DNA of 32,000 nucleotides from Candidatus Babelota bacterium (GCA_039809905.1 JBDHVY010000001.1:1170001-1202000); one strand, 5' to 3'; shown: positions 1 to 16,846, counted from the first letter of the stretch. Numbers and translations: made by a program. Notes: generated from the letters alone by a model not told the origin.

Positions 1-56
1 TGTTCCCAGTGGGCAATCTGGTTTAAGGGTGGTTTTGTGTATTGATCTGTTTATTG

Positions 57-1157
57 TTAATTATTGTAAAGCATTCTCTTTATATTCATAATTTTTTCAA
101 CGTGATCATCAATTTCTTTTTCAGTGATGTGGTTATCTTCGAGAGTTTTTTTGATTAGGCAGATGGCTGCAGGCACATCAGTAGGACATAATAGAATATC
201 ATTTCCTGCAATAAGGGCTTGCAATTCAGCTTGTCCCTGCGAATAATTTTTTGTAATGCCACCCATATCAAGTGCATCAGTAATAATAAGACCATCAAAT
301 AGCAGTTCTTTTTGTAACACATTCGTGACAATGTTTTTTGATAGACTTGAAGGTATATTGTTTTCATTTTCAAGAGCAGGAACTTCAAGATGTGCAATCA
401 TGATGGCTGGAATATCTGCATTGATTAACGCTTTAAATGGCACTAATTCAACTGCATGCAATCTTTCTTTATCATGAGCAATAAGAGGTAAATCATAATG
501 TGAATCAACATCAGTATCACCATGTCCCGGAAAATGTTTTGCACAAGCAATAATGCCCATATCGTGTAATCCTTGTGCAAATGCAATAGCATGTTTTGTA
601 ACTATTTCTGGATTATCTCCAAACGCACGATCATTAATCACAGGATTATTTGGATTATTGTTAACATCTGCTACTGGTGCAAACACAATATTGACTCCTA
701 TTGTTTTTGCAATATTTCCAACTACTCTGCCAATATCATACGTGTATTTTTCATTATTAATTTCTCCTAGTTGTTCGTTACAAGGAAAGTGGATGAATTC
801 AGCAAAGCGACCAGCGCCAACTCTGCCGGGCTCCAAATCTTGGCCAACGAGCAATGGAATAGCTGATATACTTTGAAAGCGCAGTGTACGGTCTCTTTGT
901 TTTATGTAATCACTTTTTCCAAAAAAAATAATTCCACCGATGTGATATTCAGTGATAAGTTCTTCAATATATTCTTTATCCATGCGATACGGCTTTTTTT
1001 GCATGATTTCATGAGTAATTTCTTCATCTGCAAAAGCTGCAACCATAAATAATTGACCAATTTTTTGATCAAGAGTGAGATCACTTATATGAGGGATTTC
1101 AGAATAAATAAAAGTAAAGGAGCTGCAAAACATTATAAGAAAAAATCGCATATTCAT
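57..1157 (-). CDS. Exported glycoside hydrolase family 3 enzyme, NagZ-like beta-N-acetylhexosaminidase (single-domain GH3)
   Basis: 366-aa ORF with GH3 N-terminal-domain blocks KIGQLFMV, LLVGQDLEPGRV, FAPVADVNNNPNNPVINDRAFG, KHFPGHGDTDVDSH and IITDALDMGG. The hydrophobic N-terminus MRFFLIMFCSSFTFIYS suggests export. Confidence 0.85.
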   Translation of the reverse strand: MNMRFFLIMFCSSFTFIYSEIPHISDLTLDQKIGQLFMVAAFADEEITHEIMQKKPYRMDKEYIEELITEYHIGGIIFFGKSDYIKQRDRTLRFQSISAIPLLVGQDLEPGRVGAGRFAEFIHFPCNEQLGEINNEKYTYDIGRVVGNIAKTIGVNIVFAPVADVNNNPNNPVINDRAFGDNPEIVTKHAIAFAQGLHDMGIIACAKHFPGHGDTDVDSHYDLPLIAHDKERLHAVELVPFKALINADIPAIMIAHLEVPALENENNIPSSLSKNIVTNVLQKELLFDGLIITDALDMGGITKNYSQGQAELQALIAGNDILLCPTDVPAAICLIKKTLEDNHITEKEIDDHVEKIMNIKRMLYNN

Positions 1158-1248
1158 CAGATTTCCTTTTTTATTGAATTATGCTTTGTATGCTGTTGAG
1201 GTAATTAATGACCACATTAGCATAAAAGTTATGGAATCAATATAAAAT

Positions 1249-2109
1249 TTACATTTTCAGGTAATTGGGCATGTGCTGAATTATATAAAGTGCAGAAAGG
1301 GCTAATATATTTCCAGATGTTCTCAAAGAAGATCCCGTATAAAAATTTTTCCATCCATGTTGATTTATTGTTTTTAGAAAAACATCAAGTGGTCCTTGAT
1401 AATGTTTTTTTTCTATATCAGCATGCAATTTAGTTGCCATAACCCTCAACGGTTGTGTTGTTGCAGTCAGAAGGATTGAAGAAAAACAAGCGCTTGATGC
1501 AAAAGCTGCTGCACAGTTATCACAATAATGATTGATGTAATTTTTGATAAATGGCAATCCATTGGTATATGTTGTTGCAAATAGTATTGCTTGGAATGTT
1601 GTAGGGACTATGCCACGACTCAGGCTTTTATAGCGATGAGGAAAATTATTGATAATAGTGCGCACTGGTAATCCAGTATTTTGTTTATGGACTGCTAATA
1701 ATCCTGAAGCATTAGAAAAAGGAGCTGAAGACGCACCAGCAAGAATTGCTGCAAGAGTAGTTTTTTCGTTAGGATCTTTGTTGTTATCTGAGCACCCAAT
1801 GATGTTGTTTATTAATTTATATATAGCTGTTTGCAAAGCAATAACAGGAATATTGTTAGCAGCAAGAATAGTGTATCCTCTAAAGCAATGATGTATATTG
1901 TTCATTTTTATTTTTATTTCTAATCCTTGAGCTTTTTGTGATTGCGCATAATGGAATGGCATATAGAGAAATGTAGCGAGTAAACTACTTGTTCCACCAA
2001 TTAAGCCTGTTCGAGCGCAATCAGACATATTCTTCAATACCATCGATGATTCACTTGCATGCATATGTATTATGGTGCAGCAGAGTAAAAAGGTAACAAA
2101 TTTGTACAT
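1249..2109 (-). CDS. Mitochondrial carrier family (MCF/SLC25)-like six-helix membrane protein, divergent
   Basis: 286 aa, a typical MCF length. Three tandem ~90-aa repeats (about residues 31-103, 117-192, 199-280) each have a Gly/Ala/Ser-rich helix ending in Pro: LYMPFHYAQSQK, SSAPFSNASGLL, TTQPLRVMATKL. Each is followed by a [FY]xG helix: FRGYTILAANNIPVIALQTAIYKLI, LSRGIVPTTFQAILFATTYTNGLPFIK, WKNFYTGSSLRTSGNILALSALYII. The charged residues of the canonical Px[DE]xx[KR] signature are mostly missing, so the call rests on repeat architecture only. Confidence 0.55.
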   Translation of the reverse strand: MYKFVTFLLCCTIIHMHASESSMVLKNMSDCARTGLIGGTSSLLATFLYMPFHYAQSQKAQGLEIKIKMNNIHHCFRGYTILAANNIPVIALQTAIYKLINNIIGCSDNNKDPNEKTTLAAILAGASSAPFSNASGLLAVHKQNTGLPVRTIINNFPHRYKSLSRGIVPTTFQAILFATTYTNGLPFIKNYINHYCDNCAAAFASSACFSSILLTATTQPLRVMATKLHADIEKKHYQGPLDVFLKTINQHGWKNFYTGSSLRTSGNILALSALYIIQHMPNYLKM

Positions 2110-2142
2110 GATTTCCCCTTGTGATTGATAAAAAATTGCCCT

Positions 2143-2168
2143 AAAAAAAGGCCCTCTGATGAGGGCCT
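2143..2168 (-). terminator. Rho-independent terminator downstream of the GH1 gene 2183..3568
   Basis: 8-bp G+C-rich stem aggccctc / gagggcct with loop tgat. On the minus strand it is followed by a run of 7 T (plus-strand aaaaaaa at 2143-2149). Confidence 0.7.
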
Positions 2169-2182
2169 TAAGTAATTAATGA

Positions 2183-3568
2183 TTATTTCTTTTTTATTGT
2201 AGTCAGATATGGCGATGCGCCACTTTTTAATGTGCGTTGTTTGGTAGCCTGATCAACAGAAAAAAGACCAAATTGTGTATCATAACTTCCCCATGAAAAA
2301 CCATCTAAAAAGCTATAGTAATAATATCCTTCTACATTGTGACCTTCTGTCTTTGCTTTATGTAAGGCGTAAAGATGGCGTTTAATGAATAAATCTCTCA
2401 TGCTTTCATCATGGGTAGCGATACCATTTTGCGTAATAATCATGGGAATATGCAATTTTTTTGCGATTTTTTCTGATATTTCTTTGATTGCTAAATATAA
2501 TCCTTCAGGATATACCGTCATACTAGGAACATCAGTTGGCATTTCACTCGGGTTGCCTATATGATTGAAAATATTTTTAATATATCCATGACTATGATAA
2601 TTGATACCAATAAAATCAAGAGATTTTGGAGCAAATGCATTAGTATGATTGATCCACGCTCCTTTTTTGCCGGGGAAAGGTATTCTTAGTGCGAATATAC
2701 CGCTCGTGAAAAAATTATAAAATGAATAATTTGTGAGAATGTTGGCAACATAACAACTTGCTCTATCCCAAAAATGCCATGGTTCAAGAATGTGCACATG
2801 TTTGATAATGCCGATTCTGCTTGTGTTTCCATGCGGAGCAGCTTTAATTGCTTGATATACACGCACATGTGCTTCGAGTTCATTTTTAAGCACTGTTGCA
2901 GCACGGTTAAGACTACGAATTCCTGGAGGAGTGCTACCAAGAAGATAACCTAGTACGGCATAATTTTCTGGAGCCCAGAACGTGATCCAACGATTTATTT
3001 TGGTGCCTAATACTGCATACACTTTTAGGCAATACCGTTCAAATAATTGAATATTTTTTTCATATTCAAATCCACCTAAATAACCCCACCACAAAGGATC
3101 ACAATAATCTTTTAATATCACGGTAATTTCAATATTATTTTCGACTAATTCATTACAGAGATTTTTATATTGTTCTAATACTGCTTCATCAAAAATACCC
3201 TGTTCAGGTTCTATTCTGCTCCAATCAAGAGAAAAACAATACGTTGAAATACCCATTTCTTTCATCAATTGAACATCTTTTTTATAATTTTCTAAAAGTG
3301 ATGCATTGTTGTCAGAAGATGATCGTGTGAACGTTTGACCTTGCTTGTTTGTTTGATTTGCCCAAGCATACCAAGTACTTGTTTTTGAATAACCTTCCGT
3401 TTCATAGGAAAGGGTAGTTACACCCCACGAAAAAGATGCCGGAAATGAAAGAGCATTAATATTAATATCTTGCCATTTCCAATACGTAGTTGGTAAAAGA
3501 GAAAAATGAAATAAAGTCAAAATTATACTATAGAATAGTGCGGTGCGTTTCATGTGATGCCTTTGCAT
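2183..3568 (-). CDS. Exported GH1-fold protein (beta-glucosidase family) with Gln at the nucleophile position; possibly non-catalytic
   Basis: 461-aa ORF. It has GH1 blocks FSWGVTTLSYETEG (N-terminal signature), YCFSLDWSRIEP, WITFWAPENY (the NEP region) and MIITQNGIAT, where the usual I-T-E-N-G reads I-T-Q-N-G (CAA codon at 2431..2429). There is a hydrophobic leader. The second Met (MKRTALF, ATG at 3553) has a better-placed AAAGG and may be the true start. Confidence 0.85.
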   Translation of the reverse strand: MQRHHMKRTALFYSIILTLFHFSLLPTTYWKWQDININALSFPASFSWGVTTLSYETEGYSKTSTWYAWANQTNKQGQTFTRSSSDNNASLLENYKKDVQLMKEMGISTYCFSLDWSRIEPEQGIFDEAVLEQYKNLCNELVENNIEITVILKDYCDPLWWGYLGGFEYEKNIQLFERYCLKVYAVLGTKINRWITFWAPENYAVLGYLLGSTPPGIRSLNRAATVLKNELEAHVRVYQAIKAAPHGNTSRIGIIKHVHILEPWHFWDRASCYVANILTNYSFYNFFTSGIFALRIPFPGKKGAWINHTNAFAPKSLDFIGINYHSHGYIKNIFNHIGNPSEMPTDVPSMTVYPEGLYLAIKEISEKIAKKLHIPMIITQNGIATHDESMRDLFIKRHLYALHKAKTEGHNVEGYYYYSFLDGFSWGSYDTQFGLFSVDQATKQRTLKSGASPYLTTIKKK

Positions 3569-3624
3569 TAGAAATATCTTGATACACCGTATAGTATAAT
3601 TTATTTTTTATAATTTAGAATTTT

Positions 3625-5202
3625 TTAATATCCAATCAGTGGCTTAGGCATTTGTGCTTCATATTCTTGCTGCGTGAATGTTGGTTTAATACCATAGTAT
3701 CCTCTGATAAAATCGCGATAACCTTTCGAACTCGGTTTTAAAGTACGTTTCAGGTAATTAGGTGAAGATGTATCAAAATTAACATGGAAAAAACCATAAT
3801 TACGGGTTCCAAATGCGTGAGGAAATGCAGTACTTGGCCATTCATAACTATCATGAGATGACCATGGCAAATAACCAATAACAGGATAACCTTTGCTCAA
3901 TAATTGCCTGATATTTTCTAATGCACGATTAAAGAATCGTTTTCTTTTTTCTTCTCCCTGAGGAGTATTGGCTGTTGCAATACCATTTTCCGTGATGATA
4001 ATTGGTATGTTAAGTGGTTGTGCAAGAGTATCATTGATTACTTTGACAGCTCGCTCCAGGCCTTCTGGATAATCACGATATCGTGGGTTTTCTGTCATGT
4101 ATTCAGGATTTTTTTCTTCTTGAGGTTTTGTTAAAAACATATTCATATTTGAGTAAAAATTAAGACCAATCCAATCAAGGGATTCTGGAGCGGATGCATT
4201 AATTACCGAAGCTATTTCTTTTGGACCAATAGATAAATGTGCTCTACCTGTGCTGAAAAAATCAAAAAAGAGCTTATTTTGTAATGTATCTGCTACGGTA
4301 GTAATCAATCCAGAGACAGGAGATAGATAATAGTGAGTTTTATTGCCGTAGGATCTATCAAAGAGTATCAAATTTTTTATAATACCAATTTGAGGATTTG
4401 GCAGATGTGTATTTTCTTTATATAAACTTTTTATTGTTTTGTATGCAGCAACGTGTGCTTCAAGCATGTGAGCAAGCACTTTTTGAGTGAGAACTTTATC
4501 TTTTTTGCCCGGAGTATTTTCGCCTTCTTGATATGCTTTAATTGCGTATGCTTCAGGAGCATTAAATGTTGCCCAATATGTAATATCTTTCTGTAAATTT
4601 TTATACATTTCTTCTGCAAAACGAACAAAATAGATATTGTTATTTTGATTTTCAAAACCACCTAATTTTGCAAACCATTTTGGGATGGTATAATGGTGAA
4701 GTACTACGATTGGCTCTATATTATTATTTTTTAATTGTTGGATAATTCTTTTATAATGTTCAATAGCTTCTCTGTTAAATTTTCCTCTTTTTTGTTCTAT
4801 TCGATCCCATGCAATAGTAAGGCGAAAACTGTTTATTCCTAATTCATTTTTCATTTGAGCAATATCAGTTGCATATTTGTGCCAAAAATCTATTGCATTG
4901 CCAGCAAGCGGCAATTTTTTTGAGCGATAAAAATCTGCTGTAGCATTATATTTATCCAAACCACCTTCAATTTGATAAGCAGAAGAAGACAATCCAAACA
5001 AAAACTCTTTTTGTGTTGGGTTTTGTTTATGCGCAATACTGCTTAGCCACGTTTCTTTGAATTTTTTTCCTAAATCATAAGAATTAATGGTAGGAGTTAC
5101 TTGTCCACTAACTTCATAGGTATCAGAATAATTTCTCATTGCTATCGCATTATGGGTACTAAGAAATAGTGATATTATTATGAGTTCTCTATTTTTTTTC
5201 AT
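3625..5202 (-). CDS. Exported glycoside hydrolase family 1 (beta-glucosidase-like) paralog
   Basis: 525-aa ORF with FLFGLSSSAYQIEGG, NSFRLTIAWDRIE, WATFNAPEAYA and IIITENGIAT. The leader is MKKNRELIIISLFLSTHNAIAM. Its ATG overlaps the stop of the upstream GH1 gene as ATGA (5199-5202), which implies co-transcription and translational coupling. Confidence 0.9.
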   Translation of the reverse strand: MKKNRELIIISLFLSTHNAIAMRNYSDTYEVSGQVTPTINSYDLGKKFKETWLSSIAHKQNPTQKEFLFGLSSSAYQIEGGLDKYNATADFYRSKKLPLAGNAIDFWHKYATDIAQMKNELGINSFRLTIAWDRIEQKRGKFNREAIEHYKRIIQQLKNNNIEPIVVLHHYTIPKWFAKLGGFENQNNNIYFVRFAEEMYKNLQKDITYWATFNAPEAYAIKAYQEGENTPGKKDKVLTQKVLAHMLEAHVAAYKTIKSLYKENTHLPNPQIGIIKNLILFDRSYGNKTHYYLSPVSGLITTVADTLQNKLFFDFFSTGRAHLSIGPKEIASVINASAPESLDWIGLNFYSNMNMFLTKPQEEKNPEYMTENPRYRDYPEGLERAVKVINDTLAQPLNIPIIITENGIATANTPQGEEKRKRFFNRALENIRQLLSKGYPVIGYLPWSSHDSYEWPSTAFPHAFGTRNYGFFHVNFDTSSPNYLKRTLKPSSKGYRDFIRGYYGIKPTFTQQEYEAQMPKPLIGY

Positions 5203-6836
5203 TGCTGTTCCTTGCTAAAATAATTTTGTATGAAATCGCGATAATATTCAGAGCCTTTTTTGAGTGTTCGAGGTAAATCATCTTGAGTAAAATCAACAGC
5301 AAACATACCGTATGGCCTATCGTATGGATTTTCTTGTATGAGAGAAGGCCATTCATAATTATCATGAGATGCCCATGGTGTATAGCCAATGATTGGATAA
5401 TCTTCTTCTATAAGTTTGCGAATAGTGTAAAGTGCACGTTGAAAAAAGCGAGTACGTCGAGCATTATTTTCTGTAGCAATGCCATTTTCTGTGATGATGA
5501 TAGGAATATTAAGTGGTTTTGCGATAGCATCATTAATAATTTTTACACCACGATAAATACCTTCCGGATAGTCACGATATCTTAAGTTTGCAGTTTGTCT
5601 ATCTTCATTGGTTTCTTGCTGTGGTTTTGTGCCTAACATTTCCATATTTGAATAAATATTAATACCAATCCAATCGAGTGTGTTGTAATAGCGATAATAG
5701 AGCAATGAAAGTATCATTTTGTTTTGAAATGCAGCACCAAAAGTGGTTGCAATTTTTGTTGAAAAAGCTTCTCTTTTTGTTGAAATTTTTTCCTGAGCAG
5801 GATCAAGCGGAACTATATTTTTTTGAATACCTATTTGTGGAACAGGAATATCTTTATTTTTGTACTGTTTATATAAAGCTTTGATTGCTTTGTATGATTC
5901 AGCATGAGCAGCGAGCATGTTATACATTACGTTTTCTGTTGTCAAAAGACTTTTTTTGGTTCCCGGAGGACCATCAAGAGTAAAATATCCTTTAAAAGCA
6001 TATCCTTCGATTGCATTGAATGTTGACCAATAGGTTACATCTGCATGCAATGCTTCATACATTTTTTTTGCAAAAGCAACAAAGTATTTGATATTTTTAT
6101 ATTTTTCAAACCCACCAATTTCTGCAAACCACTGTGGAATTGTATAGTGATGAAGTACTACAATAGGCTCAATATTGTTTTTTTTTAGCAGCCTAATGAT
6201 GTTTACATATTGATCGATTGCATCTTGGTTCCATAATGGCTTATTAGGATCATTCCATAATTCTGGTGCGAGTTGTATCCGATCCCATGCAATTGAAAGT
6301 CGGAAGCTATTAATACCAAGTTGTGCTTTCATTTGAGCGATATCTGTTCTATAGCGATTCCAAAAATCAATTGCTCTACCAGCTGGTTCAAATCCTTTTG
6401 CTTTATAAAAAATGGCATTGGCATTGTTGCTATCAAGGCCACCTTCATATTGATATGAAGATGATGAAGCTCCAAAAAGAAATTTTTCAGGATGATCTTT
6501 AAAACGAGCCATAATTGGATTTTTTTCTGCAGCTTTATTGATGGTTTCTTTAAATTTCCTAGCAGATTCTTTAGGGTCTATAATTGATTTTCTTTCATTA
6601 TAAAAATTTCCTAAATCCAAGGGCTTACCTGTTGCTTGCGAAGTGATAACGGCTTTTTGAAATTTAGTTTTCGATGGTTGTTCATTCTGTTGCGTAGTTG
6701 GTTGTGTAAAATTGGGCAGAAAACTTTTAAACCATTCGATTGAAAACATTGTCGGTTGTTCAGAAGCATATGTTGGATTATTTGGAAAGGATAATAAAAA
6801 AAAAGCTAATAAACTATTTTTTATAAACATACTCAT
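5199..6836 (-). CDS. Exported glycoside hydrolase family 1 (beta-glucosidase-like) paralog
   Basis: 545-aa ORF with FLFGASSSSYQYEGG, NSFRLSIAWDRIQ, WSTFNAIEGYA and IIITENGIAT. It has a hydrophobic leader and a ~110-aa N-terminal extension before the GH1 core. Confidence 0.9.
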   Translation of the reverse strand: MSMFIKNSLLAFFLLSFPNNPTYASEQPTMFSIEWFKSFLPNFTQPTTQQNEQPSKTKFQKAVITSQATGKPLDLGNFYNERKSIIDPKESARKFKETINKAAEKNPIMARFKDHPEKFLFGASSSSYQYEGGLDSNNANAIFYKAKGFEPAGRAIDFWNRYRTDIAQMKAQLGINSFRLSIAWDRIQLAPELWNDPNKPLWNQDAIDQYVNIIRLLKKNNIEPIVVLHHYTIPQWFAEIGGFEKYKNIKYFVAFAKKMYEALHADVTYWSTFNAIEGYAFKGYFTLDGPPGTKKSLLTTENVMYNMLAAHAESYKAIKALYKQYKNKDIPVPQIGIQKNIVPLDPAQEKISTKREAFSTKIATTFGAAFQNKMILSLLYYRYYNTLDWIGINIYSNMEMLGTKPQQETNEDRQTANLRYRDYPEGIYRGVKIINDAIAKPLNIPIIITENGIATENNARRTRFFQRALYTIRKLIEEDYPIIGYTPWASHDNYEWPSLIQENPYDRPYGMFAVDFTQDDLPRTLKKGSEYYRDFIQNYFSKEQQ

Positions 6837-6950
6837 CCCTTGAATTAGAACATAGCATGTTTTTAATATACAGTTTGAAAATATTGAAATTCAAGGATAT
6901 GGTCATTTTATATGAAAATTGTTAACATATCCCGATTTAAATCTTATCTC

Positions 6951-7047
6951 GCGTTCGGGAATACCCTTCAACAAGTTCAGGGCGAGCGCAGCGAGAAATG
7001 AACGCAGTGTTTACTGCTGAGCTTGTCGAAGTATCAGGGCGAGCGCG
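6951..7047. other. G+C-rich intergenic island with an internal direct repeat and stem
   Basis: cagggcgagcgc occurs twice (6979-6990 and 7035-7046). cttcaacaag (6966-6975) is complementary to cttgtcgaag (7022-7031) at 9 of 10 positions. A small hairpin gcagtgtttactgc lies between them. The segment stands out against the AT-rich flanks and has no ORF. Confidence 0.4.
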
Positions 7048-7115
7048 AAAAATATAAATAATAAATAAGGTCATTTTAGTGATTCATGCTATATATGAAA
7101 AGAGGTATTAATAGT

Positions 7116-7155
7116 AAAAAAGGATTCTGATCTAAAAATCAGAATCCTTTTTTTA
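7116..7155 (-). terminator. Bidirectional rho-independent terminator downstream of the GH1 gene 7169..8890
   Basis: 11-bp perfect stem aggattctgat / atcagaatcct with loop ctaaaa. It is flanked by aaaaa on the left and ttttttt on the right. Confidence 0.8.
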
Positions 7156-7168
7156 ATAGATATATATT

Positions 7169-8890
7169 TTACGCTTTTTTAAAAAATTGTTCGGCAAAGG
7201 AAGCATAATACTTAGAACCATCTTTGAGTGTTCTTTTCATATAATCAGGTGAATTTTTATCAAAGTTCACGGCAAAAAAACCGTAATTTTTTGAATCGAA
7301 TCCTTGTGGATTATCTTGTGTTGGCCATTCATAATTATTATGCGAAGTCCATGGCAAATACCCAATAACGGGATAACCATCTTTAATCAATTGTGTAATT
7401 GTCCACATAGCCCGTTGAAAATATCGCGTACGTTTTGCATCATCATTCGTTGCAATACCATTTTCAGTAATAATAATTGGTAGTGGTTTGCCATGGTTAT
7501 TTTTTAATTTGCCAAGAGGGAATGCGAGATTGTCAGCAATTATTTTTACTGCTCGCTCAAGACCTTCAGGATAATTTCGATAATTTAGGTTATCAGTGTA
7601 ACGCTCTTCATCAATTTCAATAAGTTTATTGCCCGTGACTTGTTCAAAGCCATTCATGAATCTATTTGAATATACGTTGACTCCAATCCAATCGAATGCT
7701 TTATGAGCATGTTTGTGTTCACGATATACATTCAGACCTTTAGCAGTTTTCATAAAATCCGCATCAGGAGTATACATGCAATATACGCCATTAACCAAGA
7801 AATCGAATGTTCCACCTGATTGTATATATGATCCCATTGCGCACCCCAGCGCTGTTTTAAGGTTGTTACTATCCCAATGAGGATCAATAAGTACAATATT
7901 AATCTGTGTGCCAATAGATGGCTGTTTTAAAAGAGGATTGTGTTTTTTGAGATTTTTATATTGACGTTGAATTGCCAGAGCGGTATCAACCAGTTCGTAA
8001 TACATGTTGGCAATGACGGTGTGAGTTTTTTGGATATTATTTTTTTCACCGGGTGTTCCATCACCAGTAAAGTATCCTTTAAATGCAGGGCCTTCTGGTG
8101 CATTGCACATAGATATAAGACAATTTCCTAATTCTTCTGCCAGCTCAGTATAAACTTTTAAGCAGAATTCTTGGAAATACGCCCCATTTTTTTGTAGTTC
8201 AAATCCACCCAGATCTTCAAACCATTGTGGTACATCATAATGATGAAAAACGATCATTGGTTTAATGCCATGAGCAATAAGTACGTTGATAACTTTTTTG
8301 TAGAATGCAATTGCATCCATATCAAATACACCCAGCTGTGGTTGAATTCTGTTCCATGCAAGTGATAAACGATATGCATTAATGTGTAATTCTTGAGCGA
8401 GTTGTTCTATATCAGTTTCGTAACGGTGATAAAAATCAATCGCATCACCAGCGATTTGTAATTGTGCCTTATCACGGTAAAAACGTGCAGCAGCAGATGT
8501 TTCATCAAGACCACCTTCAATCTGATACGCAGAAGATGATGCGCCGAGCAAAAATTCTTCTGGTTTGATATCAGTGCAAGGGTTATCTATGATCGCGTTA
8601 TATAAAGCTTCAACATCAATAAGAATATTTTCTGGAGTGGCAAAAACTCCTGGGCCATATAGTTGAGCTAATTTTTCTTCGATTAAGGTATGTTCTAAGC
8701 GTCCATTATTCCAAAAATGTTTTGCAATGGCGTTTGCCATTACTTTAGCGAATTTAGCGCGTTGCTTGGCATATATCTTGGCATTTTTGACTGATGCTGG
8801 TAGTTCAAATGCCTGAGTGCTTGGCAAAAGGGTGATTATACCCATTAATATTGTCGACTTAAAGGGCAAAAGTGCTTTTTTATACATCAT
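7169..8890 (-). CDS. Exported glycoside hydrolase family 1 (beta-glucosidase-like) paralog with a long N-terminal extension
   Basis: 573-aa ORF with FLLGASSSAYQIEGG, NAYRLSLAWNRIQP, ISMCNAPEGPA and IIITENGIAT, plus a hydrophobic leader. Confidence 0.9.
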   Translation of the reverse strand: MMYKKALLPFKSTILMGIITLLPSTQAFELPASVKNAKIYAKQRAKFAKVMANAIAKHFWNNGRLEHTLIEEKLAQLYGPGVFATPENILIDVEALYNAIIDNPCTDIKPEEFLLGASSSAYQIEGGLDETSAAARFYRDKAQLQIAGDAIDFYHRYETDIEQLAQELHINAYRLSLAWNRIQPQLGVFDMDAIAFYKKVINVLIAHGIKPMIVFHHYDVPQWFEDLGGFELQKNGAYFQEFCLKVYTELAEELGNCLISMCNAPEGPAFKGYFTGDGTPGEKNNIQKTHTVIANMYYELVDTALAIQRQYKNLKKHNPLLKQPSIGTQINIVLIDPHWDSNNLKTALGCAMGSYIQSGGTFDFLVNGVYCMYTPDADFMKTAKGLNVYREHKHAHKAFDWIGVNVYSNRFMNGFEQVTGNKLIEIDEERYTDNLNYRNYPEGLERAVKIIADNLAFPLGKLKNNHGKPLPIIITENGIATNDDAKRTRYFQRAMWTITQLIKDGYPVIGYLPWTSHNNYEWPTQDNPQGFDSKNYGFFAVNFDKNSPDYMKRTLKDGSKYYASFAEQFFKKA

Positions 8891-8986
8891 TAAGGAGCCT
8901 TTTTAGCTGGAACATTTGCTATTCTATCTGTATTTATAATATGCGAGAATAAAGCATCTGTCAAAAGGCTTTTTCCTTCACTGCTT

Positions 8987-9025
8987 GCCCTTTGTAGCTC
9001 GCAGAGGGTTGTAGGTTCAAAGGGC
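8987..9025. other. G+C-rich hairpin in the divergent promoter region between 7169..8890(-) and 9143..9715(+)
   Basis: 8-bp stem gccctttg (8987-8994) / caaagggc (9018-9025) enclosing 23 nt. Confidence 0.35.
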
Positions 9026-9142
9026 TTTCTTGGCGTAAGTGGCAATTCAATTGTGTGTCAATGATAAATTGAAATACTTATGAAATATTATATAATCGTC
9101 ATGTAGGTATATGTTTCCAATTATGATTTTTATAGGTTAATC

Positions 9143-9715
9143 ATGTATAGGATGTTTAAAGCTTGTATATTAGTGCTCGTTTCAATAAGCTCATCTCTCT
9201 GCTTTAGTATGCATGGTATGAACGCTATAGAAAGAGCACGTGACCATTTCGATCGTATGGCTGAATATTCACATAAAACTAAACTTTTGGAACATTCTTC
9301 TTTTACCGGAGAAAGCTTAAACTTTCAAAATAGATTTTTTACTTCGAAATATATGGAGTTGCCAGGAGATATTGCTTCTCACATTCTTCTTATAAGCAAA
9401 AATGTTTCGGTAGATCCAAGTGGTCTTGTCTTTGCATATCATGGTCATTATCGTAAACAAAGCAATGATCTTATACAGTCTTTTGCACATGCGTATCTAC
9501 AAAAAGCAGAGTTATATGATCGGCAATATCAAAAACTGTTTCTTAGGCCTGATAGCAGTGAACGTCTTTTGTCTTTAAACATAATGATGCATAATGACTT
9601 AGGTCTTCGTAATCTCGTATATGATGATATGGCCCCGGCATTCCATGCTAACCATTACCCAATAGTATTAGAGATCTATCAAAGATATTATAATACATCA
9701 CGACTTTATCAATAA
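9143..9715 (+). CDS. Hypothetical exported protein
   Basis: 190-aa ORF in an otherwise empty interval, followed by a terminator. The leader is MFKACILVLVSISSSLCFSM. I recognise no domain. Confidence 0.6.
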   Translation: MYRMFKACILVLVSISSSLCFSMHGMNAIERARDHFDRMAEYSHKTKLLEHSSFTGESLNFQNRFFTSKYMELPGDIASHILLISKNVSVDPSGLVFAYHGHYRKQSNDLIQSFAHAYLQKAELYDRQYQKLFLRPDSSERLLSLNIMMHNDLGLRNLVYDDMAPAFHANHYPIVLEIYQRYYNTSRLYQ

Positions 9716-9756
9716 TCACTTATTCCTAAACTGCAAATTTAGATAGCTGATAAAGT

Positions 9757-9789
9757 AAAAAACCTCCTAAAAAATTTAGGAGGTTTTTT
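9757..9789. terminator. Bidirectional terminator between convergent genes 9143..9715 and ychF
   Basis: 11-bp stem aacctcctaaa / tttaggaggtt with a 3-nt loop, A-run upstream and T-run downstream. Confidence 0.8.
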
Positions 9790-9807
9790 ACTTTAATTAC
9801 ATTAATT

Positions 9808-11441: not shown

Positions 11442-13100
11442 TTATGTTGTTTTTTTCCGCTCGACAGCATATTTTAATGTTTTAATAATTTTTGCTTGAT
11501 TAACACGTATGTTGAATTCAGCTTGTTCTAGAACTTTTCGAGCGTCTTCTGGTGATTCATAGTGAAAATGTTTTGTTTGGGCAAATCCATGATTAGTCTC
11601 ATAATCAAGATCAAATCCTGATAAATTGTATTCTGGGAATAATGATTTATTTTTTTCCCATAGTTCTTGATCGCTTATGCGTGGCATATAGATAACGATA
11701 GGAACATTCGGATCTTTTTTATTTTTGAAAACGCTGATAGTTTTGGTATTAATTTTTTCATAATTAATTTTGGGGAATGCAAGACTGTGTTTTTTTGCAT
11801 AAGCGGCTGCTTTTTTTAATTCGGTTCCTATCTCGCCAGCTGAAGCATCGAATACTATGATAACATCGGCTTTTCGTTCTTGAGAGAATCCAAGGATTGG
11901 TGGAAATGGAAGGTTAAAATTGGTTCCGGCATCAACAAATTTTTTAGTTTTGGATTTTTCTGTTGAATTCATTTTGTACATATAATTTGGTACTTTTGCA
12001 TAAAATTTAAGAGGGCGTGTACCTTCTGATGATTTGAGCATTTTCTCAATAAATTCTGAATGTCCTATTCTTTTTGCTGCTTCATGCTCAATGGTTTCTA
12101 TATTTGCACCAAAAGCAGATCCAAATGTTCCCAAATGATACGCTAAGTTCCTTTCAGGAGGATAGGTATCAAATTCCCCCATAACTGATTCTCCTTCTTC
12201 AAAAAATCGTCCATATGCCCATGACGGTATATAGGTTCCATCGATAGGGTTTCCTATTTCATGAGGAGTAAATTCATACCATATTTGATCTGAAACAATA
12301 TTTTCAGCACCATCAATTGCTACGTAAACGGGACAGGGGAGTTCTCCATGAGCAACCTTTTTTGCTTGATCTGATAAGTAAACGATATGTCTATCATCAC
12401 CAAAGCATTGCAAAAAATTGTTGCCTAATAAACTACCATATAAATCTACGGGAGTTTTTTTTTGTTTATGAATATCTTTTGCTCGAGCAATATCAAAGAT
12501 TAATAATTCTTCTTTGTCTGTAGGATTTATAAATGATTTTGATACGCAATTGATGATATATTTTTTGAGCTCTTGGCATGGCATACCACTAGACATCCAT
12601 GGTGCAACTGTCCACGTAGAACCAGAAAGCGCTGTCACATGAGTGATAGCATCAAGAATGCCTATGTTTTCTACGCCACATAGTGCTCCTGCGGTATATA
12701 ATGCTGCTCGGCATCCACCGCCACTATTGACCATAGCAACTTTTAATATCTGTTCGTTTTGTAATGGTTCGCCTACTATTTTCTCTAAACAGGCTTTATT
12801 AACAGCAAGCCGTTTTTGTAAACATTTTTTTTCGCCATCACTAATTTCTGGACCTTTTCTAACGGAAGCAGGTTTAAATTTATATTGATTATGAGTTATT
12901 GCTTTTGGTTCACCAGCTAGTGCATTGCCAAGTTCGGGTATAATAGTGCCAATAACGGTACCAAGTTCCTTTTTTGCAGTTTCAATATCTTTTTCAAAAT
13001 GGCGGATGTCTTTTTCGATGTTCTCTTTGAGATGATGCATACTGTGAGAATATGGACTAAAAAATATACATATAAGAATGGCTGAAAGCTGAATAAACAT
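11442..13100 (-). CDS. Exported cytosolic-phospholipase-A2-type (PLA2_B / lysophospholipase catalytic domain) lipase
   Basis: 552 aa. VNSGGGCRAALYTAGALCGVENIGILDAITHVTALSGSTW matches the cPLA2 oxyanion GGGxR block and the G-L-S-G-S-T-W nucleophile elbow. FVDAGTNFNLPFPPIL...ADVIIVFDASAG matches the catalytic-Asp D-A-G block. The leader is MFIQLSAILICIFFSPYSHSM. Confidence 0.8.
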   Translation of the reverse strand: MFIQLSAILICIFFSPYSHSMHHLKENIEKDIRHFEKDIETAKKELGTVIGTIIPELGNALAGEPKAITHNQYKFKPASVRKGPEISDGEKKCLQKRLAVNKACLEKIVGEPLQNEQILKVAMVNSGGGCRAALYTAGALCGVENIGILDAITHVTALSGSTWTVAPWMSSGMPCQELKKYIINCVSKSFINPTDKEELLIFDIARAKDIHKQKKTPVDLYGSLLGNNFLQCFGDDRHIVYLSDQAKKVAHGELPCPVYVAIDGAENIVSDQIWYEFTPHEIGNPIDGTYIPSWAYGRFFEEGESVMGEFDTYPPERNLAYHLGTFGSAFGANIETIEHEAAKRIGHSEFIEKMLKSSEGTRPLKFYAKVPNYMYKMNSTEKSKTKKFVDAGTNFNLPFPPILGFSQERKADVIIVFDASAGEIGTELKKAAAYAKKHSLAFPKINYEKINTKTISVFKNKKDPNVPIVIYMPRISDQELWEKNKSLFPEYNLSGFDLDYETNHGFAQTKHFHYESPEDARKVLEQAEFNIRVNQAKIIKTLKYAVERKKTT

Positions 13101-14003: not shown

Positions 14004-14040
14004 AAAAAAGAAGGCTGTTATATAACAGCCTTCTTTTTTT
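14004..14040. terminator. Bidirectional terminator between convergent 13257..13982 and 14039..15496
   Basis: Perfect 24-nt palindrome gaaggctgttatataacagccttc flanked by aaaaaa and ttttttt. It abuts the stop codon of the minus-strand gene. Confidence 0.8.
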
Positions 14041-15496
14041 AGCTTTCACCATATTTTTGCAATAACATATTCCTGAATTTATTATCAGGATCATATGTTT
14101 TTTTTGTTTTCAAAAGATCATCAAATTGTGGATAGGCCTTGGTAAATTGTTTTTTTGTTGCGCACATAATGTAGGGAAGATAATAGGTACCATTATGTTT
14201 TAATGCTGCCTCAATAATTTTTTCTGTCCATCTACAAGATCGATTAATTGACCACCGATTATTGAAGATGTTAAGATACAATACAAATGCAAATGAATTG
14301 TGTGGAGCATAGGACATTGTTGAAGTTGTATCAGCAGGAACGTATCGGATAGATACATTCAATACATTTACCCAATTTTTTTTCAATATTTTGACAAGCT
14401 TTTTTGCAAATTTTTCTGCGTGTTCTATCGGAATAAAATATTCTTGTAGAGTCATTGTTGAAGGAAAATGCCAATCTATAGCTAACTGATTTACCGAATA
14501 ACTCATTTCGTTATTGCGCCATACGACAGTGGTAGGGGATTTTATTTTTTTGAATTTTTCGAACGGTGCGCGACTAACATGAGCAAGAGGTACTCGTCTG
14601 AGAAACATTTCCAATGATTTATTGACCATATAAAAAGGTGATGAAGGTTCTTGTAGGCGGGTTTCATCAGTAACTAATTTATCAGTTGTATGCCATGTGG
14701 TGGTAAAACATTGTTGATAACGTTTGGGTAATAAATCTGTATTATAAAAAATGGTTGATACATCAGGAGCTATTGTTGATTCAAAAATATCTTTAAAGTT
14801 ATTGATAGTGCATTCATGTATTGTACGTTCAAGAGGTCTGTTTTCAGTTAAGCTTATTGTTGCTTGAGTAATAATGCCCAATAATCCATATCCGCCGATG
14901 GCAGCTTTAAAAAGATCAGCATTTTCTGTTCTGCTTGCAGAAATAAGATCGCCATTTGCTAAAACTATTTGAATTGATTCAATACCATTAATAACTGATC
15001 CATAGCGTATATCGCGGCCATGTGCATTAATACTTATTGATCCACCAACACTAAAGTTGTTGTATGATTGCATTGCTTTTACTGATAAATTATGAGGATC
15101 AATATATTTTTGAACATCATACCAGGTAGCACCTGCTTGCACCGTAATGATCTTTTTGTCTTTATTGAATGCAATAACTTTATTAAGATGTGATGTATCA
15201 ATGGCAATACTGTTTGGATATCCAATTTGCCCACCTTGAGAATAACCAGCTCCTATAACAGAAATTGGTTGTGTGCTATTGCTTATGATTTTTTGTAATT
15301 CTGTAACTGATTTAGGAGAGATAATATTGTTAACGCGAATTGAGCTAATACCCAATTTATCGGTTATGAAAATATCAGAGGTAAAACCATAGGAAAAGAG
15401 CTTGCACGTGTTGCCAAAGATTAAAAATATTGATGATATTGTGATCGTAGATAGAATTAACATTCTATTTTTCATATTACTTCCAATTTCATACAA
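14039..15496 (-). CDS. Membrane-anchored FAD-linked oxidase (PCMH-type FAD-binding domain family)
   Basis: 485 aa with an N-terminal hydrophobic anchor. FAD_binding_4-type blocks are ISVIGAGYSQGGQ, VQAGATWYDV, VGGSISINAHG and GGYGLLGIITQATISL. The C-terminal YPQFDDLLKTKKTYDPDNKFRN is typical of this superfamily. The substrate is unknown. Confidence 0.75.
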   Translation of the reverse strand: MYEIGSNMKNRMLILSTITISSIFLIFGNTCKLFSYGFTSDIFITDKLGISSIRVNNIISPKSVTELQKIISNSTQPISVIGAGYSQGGQIGYPNSIAIDTSHLNKVIAFNKDKKIITVQAGATWYDVQKYIDPHNLSVKAMQSYNNFSVGGSISINAHGRDIRYGSVINGIESIQIVLANGDLISASRTENADLFKAAIGGYGLLGIITQATISLTENRPLERTIHECTINNFKDIFESTIAPDVSTIFYNTDLLPKRYQQCFTTTWHTTDKLVTDETRLQEPSSPFYMVNKSLEMFLRRVPLAHVSRAPFEKFKKIKSPTTVVWRNNEMSYSVNQLAIDWHFPSTMTLQEYFIPIEHAEKFAKKLVKILKKNWVNVLNVSIRYVPADTTSTMSYAPHNSFAFVLYLNIFNNRWSINRSCRWTEKIIEAALKHNGTYYLPYIMCATKKQFTKAYPQFDDLLKTKKTYDPDNKFRNMLLQKYGES

Positions 15497-15559: not shown

Positions 15560-16846
15560 TCAAGTAAATGAGCGCCTTGATAATAGAGTTGTAAGAAGCA
15601 AAGATGTAATCAATAATCCGCTGGCAAGGGCGATGATATAGATACCATATCTTCCACTGAGTTTTGTAGAATTTTTTGATATTACAACATAGGCAGAAGT
15701 GGCGCCATGATTCAAGAGCAATTCTATTATTGGTTTTTTAATTTCTTGGCTAATATCACAATGGTTTAAGAAAGAAAGAGCTGTATATCCTTCGGCGTTA
15801 ATAGCATTTGGATTGGCGTCATGTTCTAATAATGATTGAACTGCGTATTGATTGGCATCTACATGAGATATCACACATAAGAGGGGCGTATCTTGCTTAT
15901 TGTTAATAACATTGGTTTTTGCGCCTTTGGAGAGTAAAAAATCTATTATAACGGCATTTTGCATTTTCGATGCGATATGAAGAGGCGTATCTCCTTTTTC
16001 ATCCCTAAGAGTTACAAGGTTTGGATTTTTTTCAAATAGTAGATTTGCTATCTCAATATGTTTGCAGGAAAAACCCTGGTTGTATATCTTATCTATGTGA
16101 TCCTCTTCAAGGCCATTATTATGATATTGTTCACGAGTTTTTAGTCTATGTTCGCATTCGCAAAGAGCATAAAAACAATTACTATTCATTTTTAGTGCTG
16201 CGCCATGATCTAACAATAGCTTTGTAAAATCTATGTTTTGGTATCGTATGCATTCTGCTAAACATTCGAATGTAATAAATTTTTTGTTAATTAAGCCTGT
16301 GCGAATTTTTTTATTTAATTCATTTTTATTTTTGAGTAATAACTCAACTATCTTGTATGCATCCGTATTTTTATTTCTTTTTTTACGTACAAAATCTTTC
16401 ATTAAATAAGTGAGTAAGTCTCCAGAGCTATTTCCACAACAGAATGATTCTTTTCTTTCAATTAAAAATTTAACTAAGTCATATTTTTGATGTATACATG
16501 CAAAGTAAACAGCAGGCAAGCAACTGTTCTCTCTGGTGCCTGCTTCGCGATAATCAAAACCTCTAACGGATAAAAAATTATTTATTATATCAACATTTCC
16601 TAAGCAACATAGGTCTTCGAGCAAGCCGTCTTTGCCTGGAAATTGATCGTTTCGTAAGAGTAGTTCTTTTATGTATGGTATATGAGATTCGTCACATTCT
16701 TTAGCCGATATAATTTTTTTTAGCCTTGAGAATTCTATCATGCTTTTTTCTTCATTGCTTAGCACTAAAGATTGAGATGATTCTATGCTGTAGGTTGATA
16801 GAGCAAATAAAAATATAGTAAAAAATAGAGAACAAAACTTTGTCAT
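15560..16846 (-). CDS. Ankyrin-repeat protein with N-terminal leader and C-terminal hydrophobic tail anchor
   Basis: 428 aa. ANK repeats include GDTPLHIASKMQNAVIIDFLLSKGAKTNVINNKQDTPL and EGYTALSFL...LLLNHGA. The last ~28 aa are GIYIIALASGLLITSLLLTTLLSRRSFT. It is collinear with its neighbour, sharing the QFPxKxGLLExLCCLG block. Confidence 0.85.
   Translation of the reverse strand: MTKFCSLFFTIFLFALSTYSIESSQSLVLSNEEKSMIEFSRLKKIISAKECDESHIPYIKELLLRNDQFPGKDGLLEDLCCLGNVDIINNFLSVRGFDYREAGTRENSCLPAVYFACIHQKYDLVKFLIERKESFCCGNSSGDLLTYLMKDFVRKKRNKNTDAYKIVELLLKNKNELNKKIRTGLINKKFITFECLAECIRYQNIDFTKLLLDHGAALKMNSNCFYALCECEHRLKTREQYHNNGLEEDHIDKIYNQGFSCKHIEIANLLFEKNPNLVTLRDEKGDTPLHIASKMQNAVIIDFLLSKGAKTNVINNKQDTPLLCVISHVDANQYAVQSLLEHDANPNAINAEGYTALSFLNHCDISQEIKKPIIELLLNHGATSAYVVISKNSTKLSGRYGIYIIALASGLLITSLLLTTLLSRRSFT

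Follow-up and report, generated by a model that had tools for sequence, protein, structure and literature searches.

Background

Glycoside hydrolase family 1 (GH1) ranks among the best-characterised families of glycosidases. To our knowledge, natural loss of its catalytic acid/base glutamate is known essentially from plant myrosinases and Klotho-type pseudoenzymes. In Klotho, GH1 domains have been re-used as binding modules, and in myrosinase ascorbate acts as the catalytic base. Engineered GH1 acid/base mutants work on activated leaving groups only, accumulate the glycosyl-enzyme, and can be rescued by small anions or thiol acceptors. Burmeister is said to have made the point in 1997 that the leaving group of the myrosinase substrate dispenses with acid catalysis. 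The substrate carries a good, anionic leaving group, and no acid catalyst is needed (PMC6691170). Here we examine a 32,000-nucleotide stretch of DNA from a Candidatus Babelota bacterium (GCA_039809905.1, JBDHVY010000001.1:1170001-1202000; "the window"), in which positions 2183-8890 are occupied by four intact open reading frames (ORFs) on the minus strand. They encode GH1 or GH1-like paralogues, called D, C, B and A in their order on that strand. By hidden Markov model (HMM), and for A and B also by fold, the four proteins are members of GH1, but the defining N-E-P feature of the family is absent from them. We propose, as a tentative first choice among several readings, that B, C and D are retaining glycosidases or transglycosidases that act on an anionic or otherwise activated leaving group in a rebuilt, more basic aglycone site.

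QE-type plant myrosinase (Sinapis alba MA1, 1MYR/1E4M; Arabidopsis TGG1-6) resembles the window proteins in its GH1 fold, in a retained nucleophile Glu, in the replacement of the acid/base Glu by a non-carboxylate, and in a basic residue seven positions further on (+7) in the aglycone region (R194-G-Y in myrosinase, K222-[G/A]-Y here; B numbering is used unless stated otherwise). However, the window proteins have Ala in place of the myrosinase Gln (and the wider clade also Ser), and at +2, the site of Leu188 in myrosinase, they have an invariant Glu. They also come from a bacterial parasite, have signal-like N-termini and show no specific affinity to the plant clade, and glucosinolates are not an expected substrate. 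Engineered GH1 acid/base mutants (Abg E170G/A, thioglycoligases and probably 3ais, a wheat beta-glucosidase) share the Ala column and the intact nucleophile. Unlike those mutants, the proteins described here are natural and ancient and are under purifying selection, with E217, K222, G218, A220, R376 and H450 as putative compensating residues. Klotho KL1/KL2 and inactive LPH-like domains are likewise GH1 domains minus one catalytic Glu, but they belong to eukaryotic multi-domain membrane proteins, whereas in B, C and D the nucleophile and the entire -1 pocket are intact. A alone resembles a pseudo-glycosidase, and even there the polar active-site residues have given way to others instead of just disappearing. 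Canonical bacterial GH1 enzymes (TIGR03356; Thermotoga BglA, Paenibacillus BglA/B) have in common with the window proteins the fold, the I-T-E-N-G motif and the glycone residues Q, H, Y, W and E-W. In contrast to those enzymes, to which they are 21-27% identical, the window proteins lack the N-E-P Glu, have the aglycone Trp replaced, carry an N-terminal extension of ~40-100 residues with a signal-like segment, and reach less than half of the equivalog cut-off. They would appear to work most like myrosinase or the engineered acid/base mutants, while belonging to neither.

Results and discussion

The four minus-strand genes are D (7169..8890; 573 residues), C (5199..6836; 545 residues), B (3625..5202; 525 residues) and the GH1-like A (2183..3568; 461 residues), which match PF00232 with E values of 3.1e-61, 1.8e-59, 1.1e-62 and 1.9e-57, respectively. 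C is 51%, D 43% and A 33% identical to B. The PF00232 scores of 195-212 bits compare with a gathering score of 22.6, and the matches cover approximately positions 4-450 of the 453 in the HMM for A, B and D; the match of C is split into two stretches, the better of which spans HMM positions 4-243. AlphaFold2 (AF2) models of A (pLDDT 87.3, pTM 0.88) and B (pLDDT 81.7, pTM 0.85) support a (beta/alpha)8 barrel for these two proteins, with TM-scores of 0.77-0.85 against solved GH1 structures. In Foldseek the B model reached a TM-score of ~0.8 with GH1 beta-glucosidases, and the A model 0.78-0.85 with GH1. Scores against the beta-glucosidase equivalog model TIGR03356 ('BGL') were 211.3 bits for A, 217.8 for B, 178.8 for C and 194.0 for D, all under the whole-protein cut-off of 478.5.

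The motif peptides WITFWAPENYAVLGYLLGSTPPG, WATFNAPEAYAIKAYQEGENTPG, WSTFNAIEGYAFKGYFTLDGPPG and ISMCNAPEGPAFKGYFTGDGTPG were located in the four translations. The acid/base column holds Ala and the +2 column Glu in every one of them: D reads C-N-A-P-E (8093-8104), with Lys271 at +7 (8078-8080) and ITENG at 7457-7471; C reads N-A-I-E (6006-6017), with Lys282 at +7 (5991-5993) and ITENG at 5481-5495; B reads N214-A215-P216-E217 (4552-4563), with K222 at +7 (4537-4539) and ITENG at 3982-3996, which contains the nucleophile E405; and A reads W-A-P-E (2966-2977), with Leu at +7 and ITQNG at 2423-2437, all on the minus strand. A first-pass annotation of this DNA had reported the Ala and the +2 Glu in all four paralogues and the I-T-E-N-G motif in three of them, the former being borne out by gap-free phmmer, MAFFT and HMM alignments and the latter by the translated sequences. 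In a phmmer search against all Protein Data Bank (PDB) chains, the segment of B from Trp210 to Gly232 (watfnapeayaikayqegentpg) aligned without gaps with witfnepnvfavlgylsgvhppg of 6z1h and with the N-E-P segment of 8puo, and a 29-residue peptide used as the query gave the identical register. The MAFFT alignment, made alongside the HMM alignment, held 313 sequences, among them 81 canonical GH1 sequences, all 81 of which have Glu in the column of the window Ala. The register is anchored on both sides (T212 and N214; Y224, P231 and G232), with no gap between W210 and G232.

A local shift of the alignment, which would place the Glu of NAPE on the canonical position and was the first-pass annotation's own first ground for refutation, was therefore rejected. 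Together with the idea that the genes are drifting pseudogenes, such an artefact has only an a priori argument in its favour, namely that just two residues separate the positions. Three ungapped, anchored alignments, intact ORFs, syntenic orthologues and hundreds of homologues with the same motif speak against it and make it scarcely credible. Among the solved GH1 chains in the PDB, none has a natural N-A-P-E. The sole F-N-A-P chain, 3ais, differs from 3aiu (NEP) only at the acid/base column over the aligned stretch and is therefore probably an engineered acid/base mutant. The canonical Asn-Glu pair is also missing from another solved GH1 domain, the first one of 8in1_A, a 994-residue two-domain 'beta-glucosidase', in which I-D-D-P aligns with the N-E-P segment (~185-211).

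Conservation in the B/C/D-type homologues goes far beyond chance at Ala215 and Glu217, both of which are invariant in 123 of 123 sequences that are only ~40-50% identical to one another; A220 is invariant too, and K222 is found in 122 of the 123. The nucleophile Glu is likewise present in all 123, and Tyr350, its pairing partner, and the full set of -1 hydrogen-bonding residues do not vary. The -1 pocket thus kept in B, C and D comprises Q77, H170, Y350, W447, E454 and W455. These columns bear directly on whether all four proteins might be non-catalytic, Klotho-like pseudo-glycosidases that bind carbohydrates of the host or the envelope. Such a role would be in keeping with the loss of the acid/base residue in all four proteins and of the nucleophile in A, with Cys in place of Asn214 in 23 of the 123 B/C/D-type sequences, with the low scores on the beta-glucosidase equivalog model, and with the Klotho precedent for GH1 domains re-used as binders. 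However, a pure binder has no need of a nucleophile, and here the nucleophile, Tyr350 and the -1 set have stayed invariant at ~40% identity; what relaxation or re-purposing looks like can be seen in the A-type sequences, in which most catalytic and -1-pocket columns have changed. We regard a binding function for the whole array as improbable. A purely non-catalytic role seems unlikely for B, C and D, since their nucleophile is invariant, and plausible for A.

While the acid/base residue is all that B, C and D have lost, in A neither catalytic Glu is left and most of the -1 site is gone. Its nucleophile Glu is replaced by Gln, and in the -1 subsite Q has become E, H has become D, N has become W and E454 has become S. 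A search with A returned an A-type group (74 members, the closest 87% identical to the query), in which the nucleophile and most other catalytic or -1-pocket columns have been exchanged for other conserved polar residues. The resulting signature is E77, D170, W214, [A/N/S/T]215, P216, [E/D]217, [H/Y]350, Q405, [Y/W]447, [S/A/T]454 and W455, and the stretch EDWAPEHQYSW is kept in orthologues of A up to 87% identical. Because the nucleophile is Gln and the -1 site has been replaced, A cannot follow the GH1 double displacement. We propose a non-canonical partner role for this conserved and well-folded protein, which would either serve in binding or catalyse some other chemistry. Outside the window, the 1,228,744-bp contig on which the window proteins lie also encodes a fifth GH1-like paralogue (P0190); it is of a variant A type whose nucleophile column holds Lys and whose signature is TGWSPEYKYDW.

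We also asked which residues go with the loss of the acid/base Glu. Of the 236 domains that keep the nucleophile but whose acid/base column is neither Glu nor Gln, 210 (89%) have Lys or Arg at +7 and 165 (70%) have Glu at +2; the corresponding figures for canonical domains with Glu in that column are 6 of 157 (4%) and 19 of 157 (12%), and among A-type domains, which have lost the nucleophile, 3 of 80 have Lys or Arg at +7 and 77 of 80 have Glu or Asp at +2, these counts, taken over all sequences collected, not being phylogenetically independent. The +2 Glu is neither clade-wide, nor exclusive to the clade, nor tied to a nucleophile; it stands beside the canonical Glu in ordinary GH1 proteins that read, for example, NEVEGY (L019) or NEPE (L012). 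The basic +7 residue, which the first-pass annotation did not mention, is the stronger and more general correlate of acid/base loss. That annotation had singled out the shifted Glu: its invariance in B, C and D stands, but its replacement of the acid/base residue is not established, since a related subgroup described below (type E) does without it, 12% of canonical sequences have it, and A-type sequences keep a carboxylate there in 77 of 80 cases.

The +7 residue binds the aglycone in GH1 crystal structures, as R194 of myrosinase, F198 of ZmGlu1, E194 of Sf-beta-gly and M172 of human CBG (PMC4013033, Table 4), and the +2 residue lines the active-site entrance as a 'gatekeeper', the example being Leu167 of ThBgl (Glu165/Leu167), equivalent to Trp168 of HiBG (PMC4802607). 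The Sinapis myrosinase reads N186-Q187...R194-G195-Y196, with the same spacing as A215...K222-[G/A]223-Y224. In the AF2 model of B, strand beta-4 spans residues 209-214 and a helix begins at P216, so that helix alpha-4 follows the strand at once and Glu217 lies in its first turn. The nearest canonical sister sequences read N-E-P-A-V-Y-V-V-[E/D]-G-Y, and the +7 residue is acidic in 9 of 13; on the leaving-group side, the lineage therefore seems to have given up one carboxylate and exchanged another for a residue of opposite charge. This side also carries small residues at 215 (A/S), 218 (G/A/S) and 220 (A), where canonical sequences have E, V/C/I and V/I/L, respectively. Both aglycone Trp residues are Tyr in the family (W122 corresponds to Y171, and the aglycone W to Y375), and R376, R384, H450, N352 and N372 are additional invariant residues in B, C and D. 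Asp282 was considered as a clade-wide alternative acid and rejected: all three subgroups have D or E there, but so do 26 of the 81 canonical sequences, and hence the position is not distinctive.

The simplest use of these residues would be a plain relocation of the catalyst, in which Glu217 swings into the space left at Ala215 and serves as both general acid and general base, so that B, C and D would be ordinary beta-glucosidases acting on neutral O-glycosides such as cellobiose. The joint invariance of E217 and A215 fits this explanation, as do the position of the +2 side chain at the active-site entrance of solved GH1 structures, the placement in the AF2 model of A215 at the end of strand beta-4 with E217 on the first helical turn after it, and the gluco/galactosidase type of the -1 pocket; sequences such as NEVE (L019) and NEPE (L012) would even allow a stepwise path from NE-x-E to NA-x-E. 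However, type E keeps the nucleophile and the -1 pocket mostly without a +2 carboxylate, and the +2 Glu or Asp is just as conserved in A-type sequences, in which, because they have no nucleophile, it must have a role other than that of a classical acid/base. Relocation also leaves the charge inversion at +7 and the invariant R376, R384 and H450 unexplained. On account of type E, the A-type conservation at +2 and the +7 inversion, we rank relocation below the reading with an activated leaving group and consider it unlikely.

According to that preferred reading, a single loss of the canonical acid/base Glu in the clade would have been followed by a remodelling of the aglycone (+1) side. Because the nucleophile and the whole glycone pocket are kept, binding of a beta-gluco- or galacto-type sugar by B, C and D is likely, and so is a covalent glycosyl-enzyme formed through E405. 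The leaving group would be anionic or otherwise activated and hence would require no protonation, which is the logic of classical myrosinase, and Lys222 may bind it. Glu217 would act at most as a general base or water-positioning residue in the second (deglycosylation) step, for which it is the best candidate base. The sequences show the motifs, the register, the conservation, the clade and the synteny directly; that the enzymes are active, what they act on and what Glu217 and Lys222 do we infer from them. Several points weigh against this proposal. With an anionic leaving group next to it, the +2 Glu would be electrostatically unfavourable unless protonated or paired, and the proposal names no candidate substrate. 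The correlation with Lys or Arg at +7 comes almost wholly from one clade, independent support for it being limited to myrosinase and three [N/S]-Q-P...K sequences. The Cys found in place of Asn214, the residue that binds O2, might signal weakened catalysis, and the distance tree described below is rough, so that a single loss of the acid/base Glu is unproven. A glycoside phosphorylase was considered as well, but the probable exported location of the proteins argues otherwise.

The first-pass annotation had suggested a coherent subfamily rather than random decay, and the wider family supports this view with a large, syntenic and conserved clade whose motif columns are invariant. A protein search with B over 5.8 billion proteins gave 547 matches at E <= 1e-10; in the best 120 of the 547, the motif is [N/C]-A-[P/I/V/A]-E in all but one, which has N-S-V-E. 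Three groups can be told apart among these homologues: B-like (NAPEAYAIK), C-like (NAIEGYAFK) and D-like (CNAPEGPAFK). Type E is a further subgroup of 35 sequences, some named Candidatus Dependentiae (for example BDC34534.1, strain Noda2021), which keeps Q, H, N, Y, the nucleophile E, and W, E and W. Its motif is N-S-P-[T/D/S/C/A], in which Ser takes the acid/base column and a carboxylate at +2 is usually missing. In a neighbour-joining tree, which is a rough, distance-based estimate, all 228 sequences without the acid/base Glu form one clade (the B/C/D-type sequences; type E together with A-type). This clade is nested among canonical sisters, first P0237 (NEPT) and an NEPA group of 12, of which the labelled members are Bacteroidota, followed by NE[PV]x sequences from the Candidate Phyla Radiation and gammaproteobacteria. 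This topology suggests, but as a distance tree does not prove, a single ancestral loss of the acid/base Glu.

A profile search over 1.84 billion representatives at 50% identity returned 12,243 matches, 1,638 of them at E <= 1e-30, and many motif variants occur among the best 150, including NSPE, NSPS, NNPS, NAPD, NGAE and NTFE. Three sequences from this search (P0342, P0345 and P0370) are GH1 proteins with [N/S]-Q-P-[I/V] and Lys at +7, and may be independent myrosinase-like enzymes. P0250 and P0332, also seen in the survey, are multi-domain LPH-like sequences with degenerate domains.

In a scan of species-representative genomes, the family-specific motif was confined to ten loci (L001-L010). 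Two of these are labelled TM6/Dependentiae and two 'uncultured Pseudomonadota', and the rest are metagenome-assembled genomes with chromosomes of 1.2-1.5 Mb. We take the Pseudomonadota label to be a mislabel because gene order is conserved at those loci. Every other scanned locus, from Patescibacteria, Planctomycetota, Bacillota, Enterobacter and others, reads N-E-x, except L048 (L-E-P), with identity of at most 31%. The conserved gene order is YchF, D, C or B, A, a mitochondrial-carrier-family protein and a GH3 NagZ-like protein; it is complete in TM6 SOIL31 (L003) and L006 and partial in L005, L007, L008 and L010. Orthologues are 62-78% identical across the syntenic loci (62-77% for D in L003 and L005-L008), and C orthologues are present in L001-L005, L009 and L010. 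Pseudogene decay was rejected on the basis of the intact ORFs, these orthologues in kept order and the invariant motif columns, and the clade is under purifying selection, with synteny across Dependentiae genomes. The array nevertheless seems to gain and lose members between species: in L006 (8700-9810) the D gene is followed by a 17-residue remnant of a C-type C-terminus, the trace of a lost paralogue, and unrelated genes lie between D and A in L007 (11390-12820) and L008 (11400-12710).

C ends and B begins within a shared ATGA at 5199..5202 on the minus strand (...cag caA TGA aaa...), where the stop codon of the one overlaps the start codon of the other. The overlap reported by the first-pass annotation is real, and the translational coupling drawn from it would be a consequence of this arrangement. 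Gaps of 332 bp and 56 bp separate D from C and B from A, respectively. A sigma-70-like promoter match found by consensus scan (TTGACA-17-TATTAT, 11/12; 8936..8964, minus strand) precedes the start codon of D by 46 bp, and is only suggestive because the number of such sites across the region equals the shuffle expectation. Fourteen bp past the A stop codon is an intrinsic-terminator-like hairpin (2148..2169, minus strand) with a 9 bp stem containing 6 GC pairs and a T-run, the top terminator-like site within positions 1-9800. Together, the promoter match before D and the hairpin after A suggest that D-C-B-A forms one transcription unit, apart from the downstream carrier and GH3 genes. Scans of the window for Rfam families and tRNAs found no RNA element. 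All four N-termini have a basic-plus-hydrophobic segment, as do 79-87% of family members, and judged from these segments the four proteins are likely to be exported.

Downstream of A, on the minus strand, is the mitochondrial-carrier-family gene (1249..2109; PF00153, E 6.8e-9), which lies between A and the GH3 gene and has the same place after the A-type gene in L003, L006 and L080. The GH3 NagZ-like protein (57..1157, minus strand; PF00933, E 4.2e-80) has an N-terminal hydrophobic segment and scores 159 bits against the NCBIfam NagZ model, under its 207-bit cut-off. Its gene adjoins the GH1 genes at six of the ten Dependentiae loci (L003, L005, L006, L007, L008 and L010), and the two types of glycosidase may work together. 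On the other side of the array, a gene at 11442-13100 (minus strand) encodes a protein with a eukaryote-type cytosolic-phospholipase A2 (cPLA2)/lysophospholipase domain (PF01735, E 7e-19) and an N-terminal hydrophobic segment, and is syntenic upstream of YchF in L003-L008. Two adjacent ankyrin-repeat proteins (15560-16846 and 16852-18447, minus strand) have hydrophobic N- and C-terminal segments and are typical of intracellular symbiont effectors. As predicted from their sequences, the ankyrin-repeat proteins, the cPLA2-like lipase and the mitochondrial-type carrier fit the genome of an intracellular member of the Dependentiae.

A further neighbour, at 14039-15496 (minus strand), encodes an FAD oxidase of the sugar-1,4-lactone oxidase/DprE1 superfamily (TIGR01678, E 7e-31; DprE1 model, E 5e-25; both below the cut-offs), and an orthologue 74% identical to it lies near the GH1 cluster of TM6 SOIL31 (L003, 892-2304). 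In myrosinase, which has no acid/base residue, ascorbate-type lactones provide the catalytic base, and the substrate of DprE1 is a polyprenyl-phospho-beta-sugar. Any functional tie between this oxidase and the GH1 array is purely speculative.

Conclusions

A full-text literature search on Dependentiae/TM6 glycosidases, the GH1 acid/base residue and myrosinase found no description of this subfamily. As far as we have found, it is an apparently undescribed variant of GH1, seen so far in Dependentiae. Its chemistry or substrate may be altered, as the first-pass annotation proposed. The one paper found to touch on these genes, which annotates them as beta-glucosidase, is that of Yeoh et al. (2016), who state that all seven TM6 genomes encode such an enzyme and can thereby obtain ATP from cellobiose (PMC4776705). 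One of those genomes is SOIL31 (L003), in which the GH1 genes we recovered are of the D, C and A types. Because these are atypical, the 'beta-glucosidase' and cellobiose inference for TM6 needs testing; if Glu217 had simply taken over the catalytic role, the published metabolic model would hold.

A broader and somewhat unlikely reading is that Dependentiae have a natural class of GH1 proteins without the canonical acid/base residue, in which either the catalyst has migrated to +2 or the enzymes are myrosinase-like or transglycosidases, with A as a partner. In the latter case the substrates would be beta-glycosides, anionic or activated, from the eukaryotic host or from the envelope of the parasite; glycosyl phosphates, polyprenyl-phosphate sugars and sulfated or acyl glycosides would be examples. 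If such a class exists, the picture of TM6 bacteria as 'cellobiose-fermenting' would be wrong, and the exported proteins would be host-interaction factors.

A 1.23-Mb parasite genome devotes at least five genes to this GH1-like family, four of them in one conserved cluster, and the conserved four-gene cluster together with the signal-like N-termini suggests a role for the array at the host interface. With intact nucleophiles, Ala or Ser in the acid/base column and a myrosinase-like basic +7 residue, this conserved bacterial clade would represent a third way, independently reached, of coping with the natural loss of the acid/base residue, and would point to a new substrate class or a migrated catalyst.

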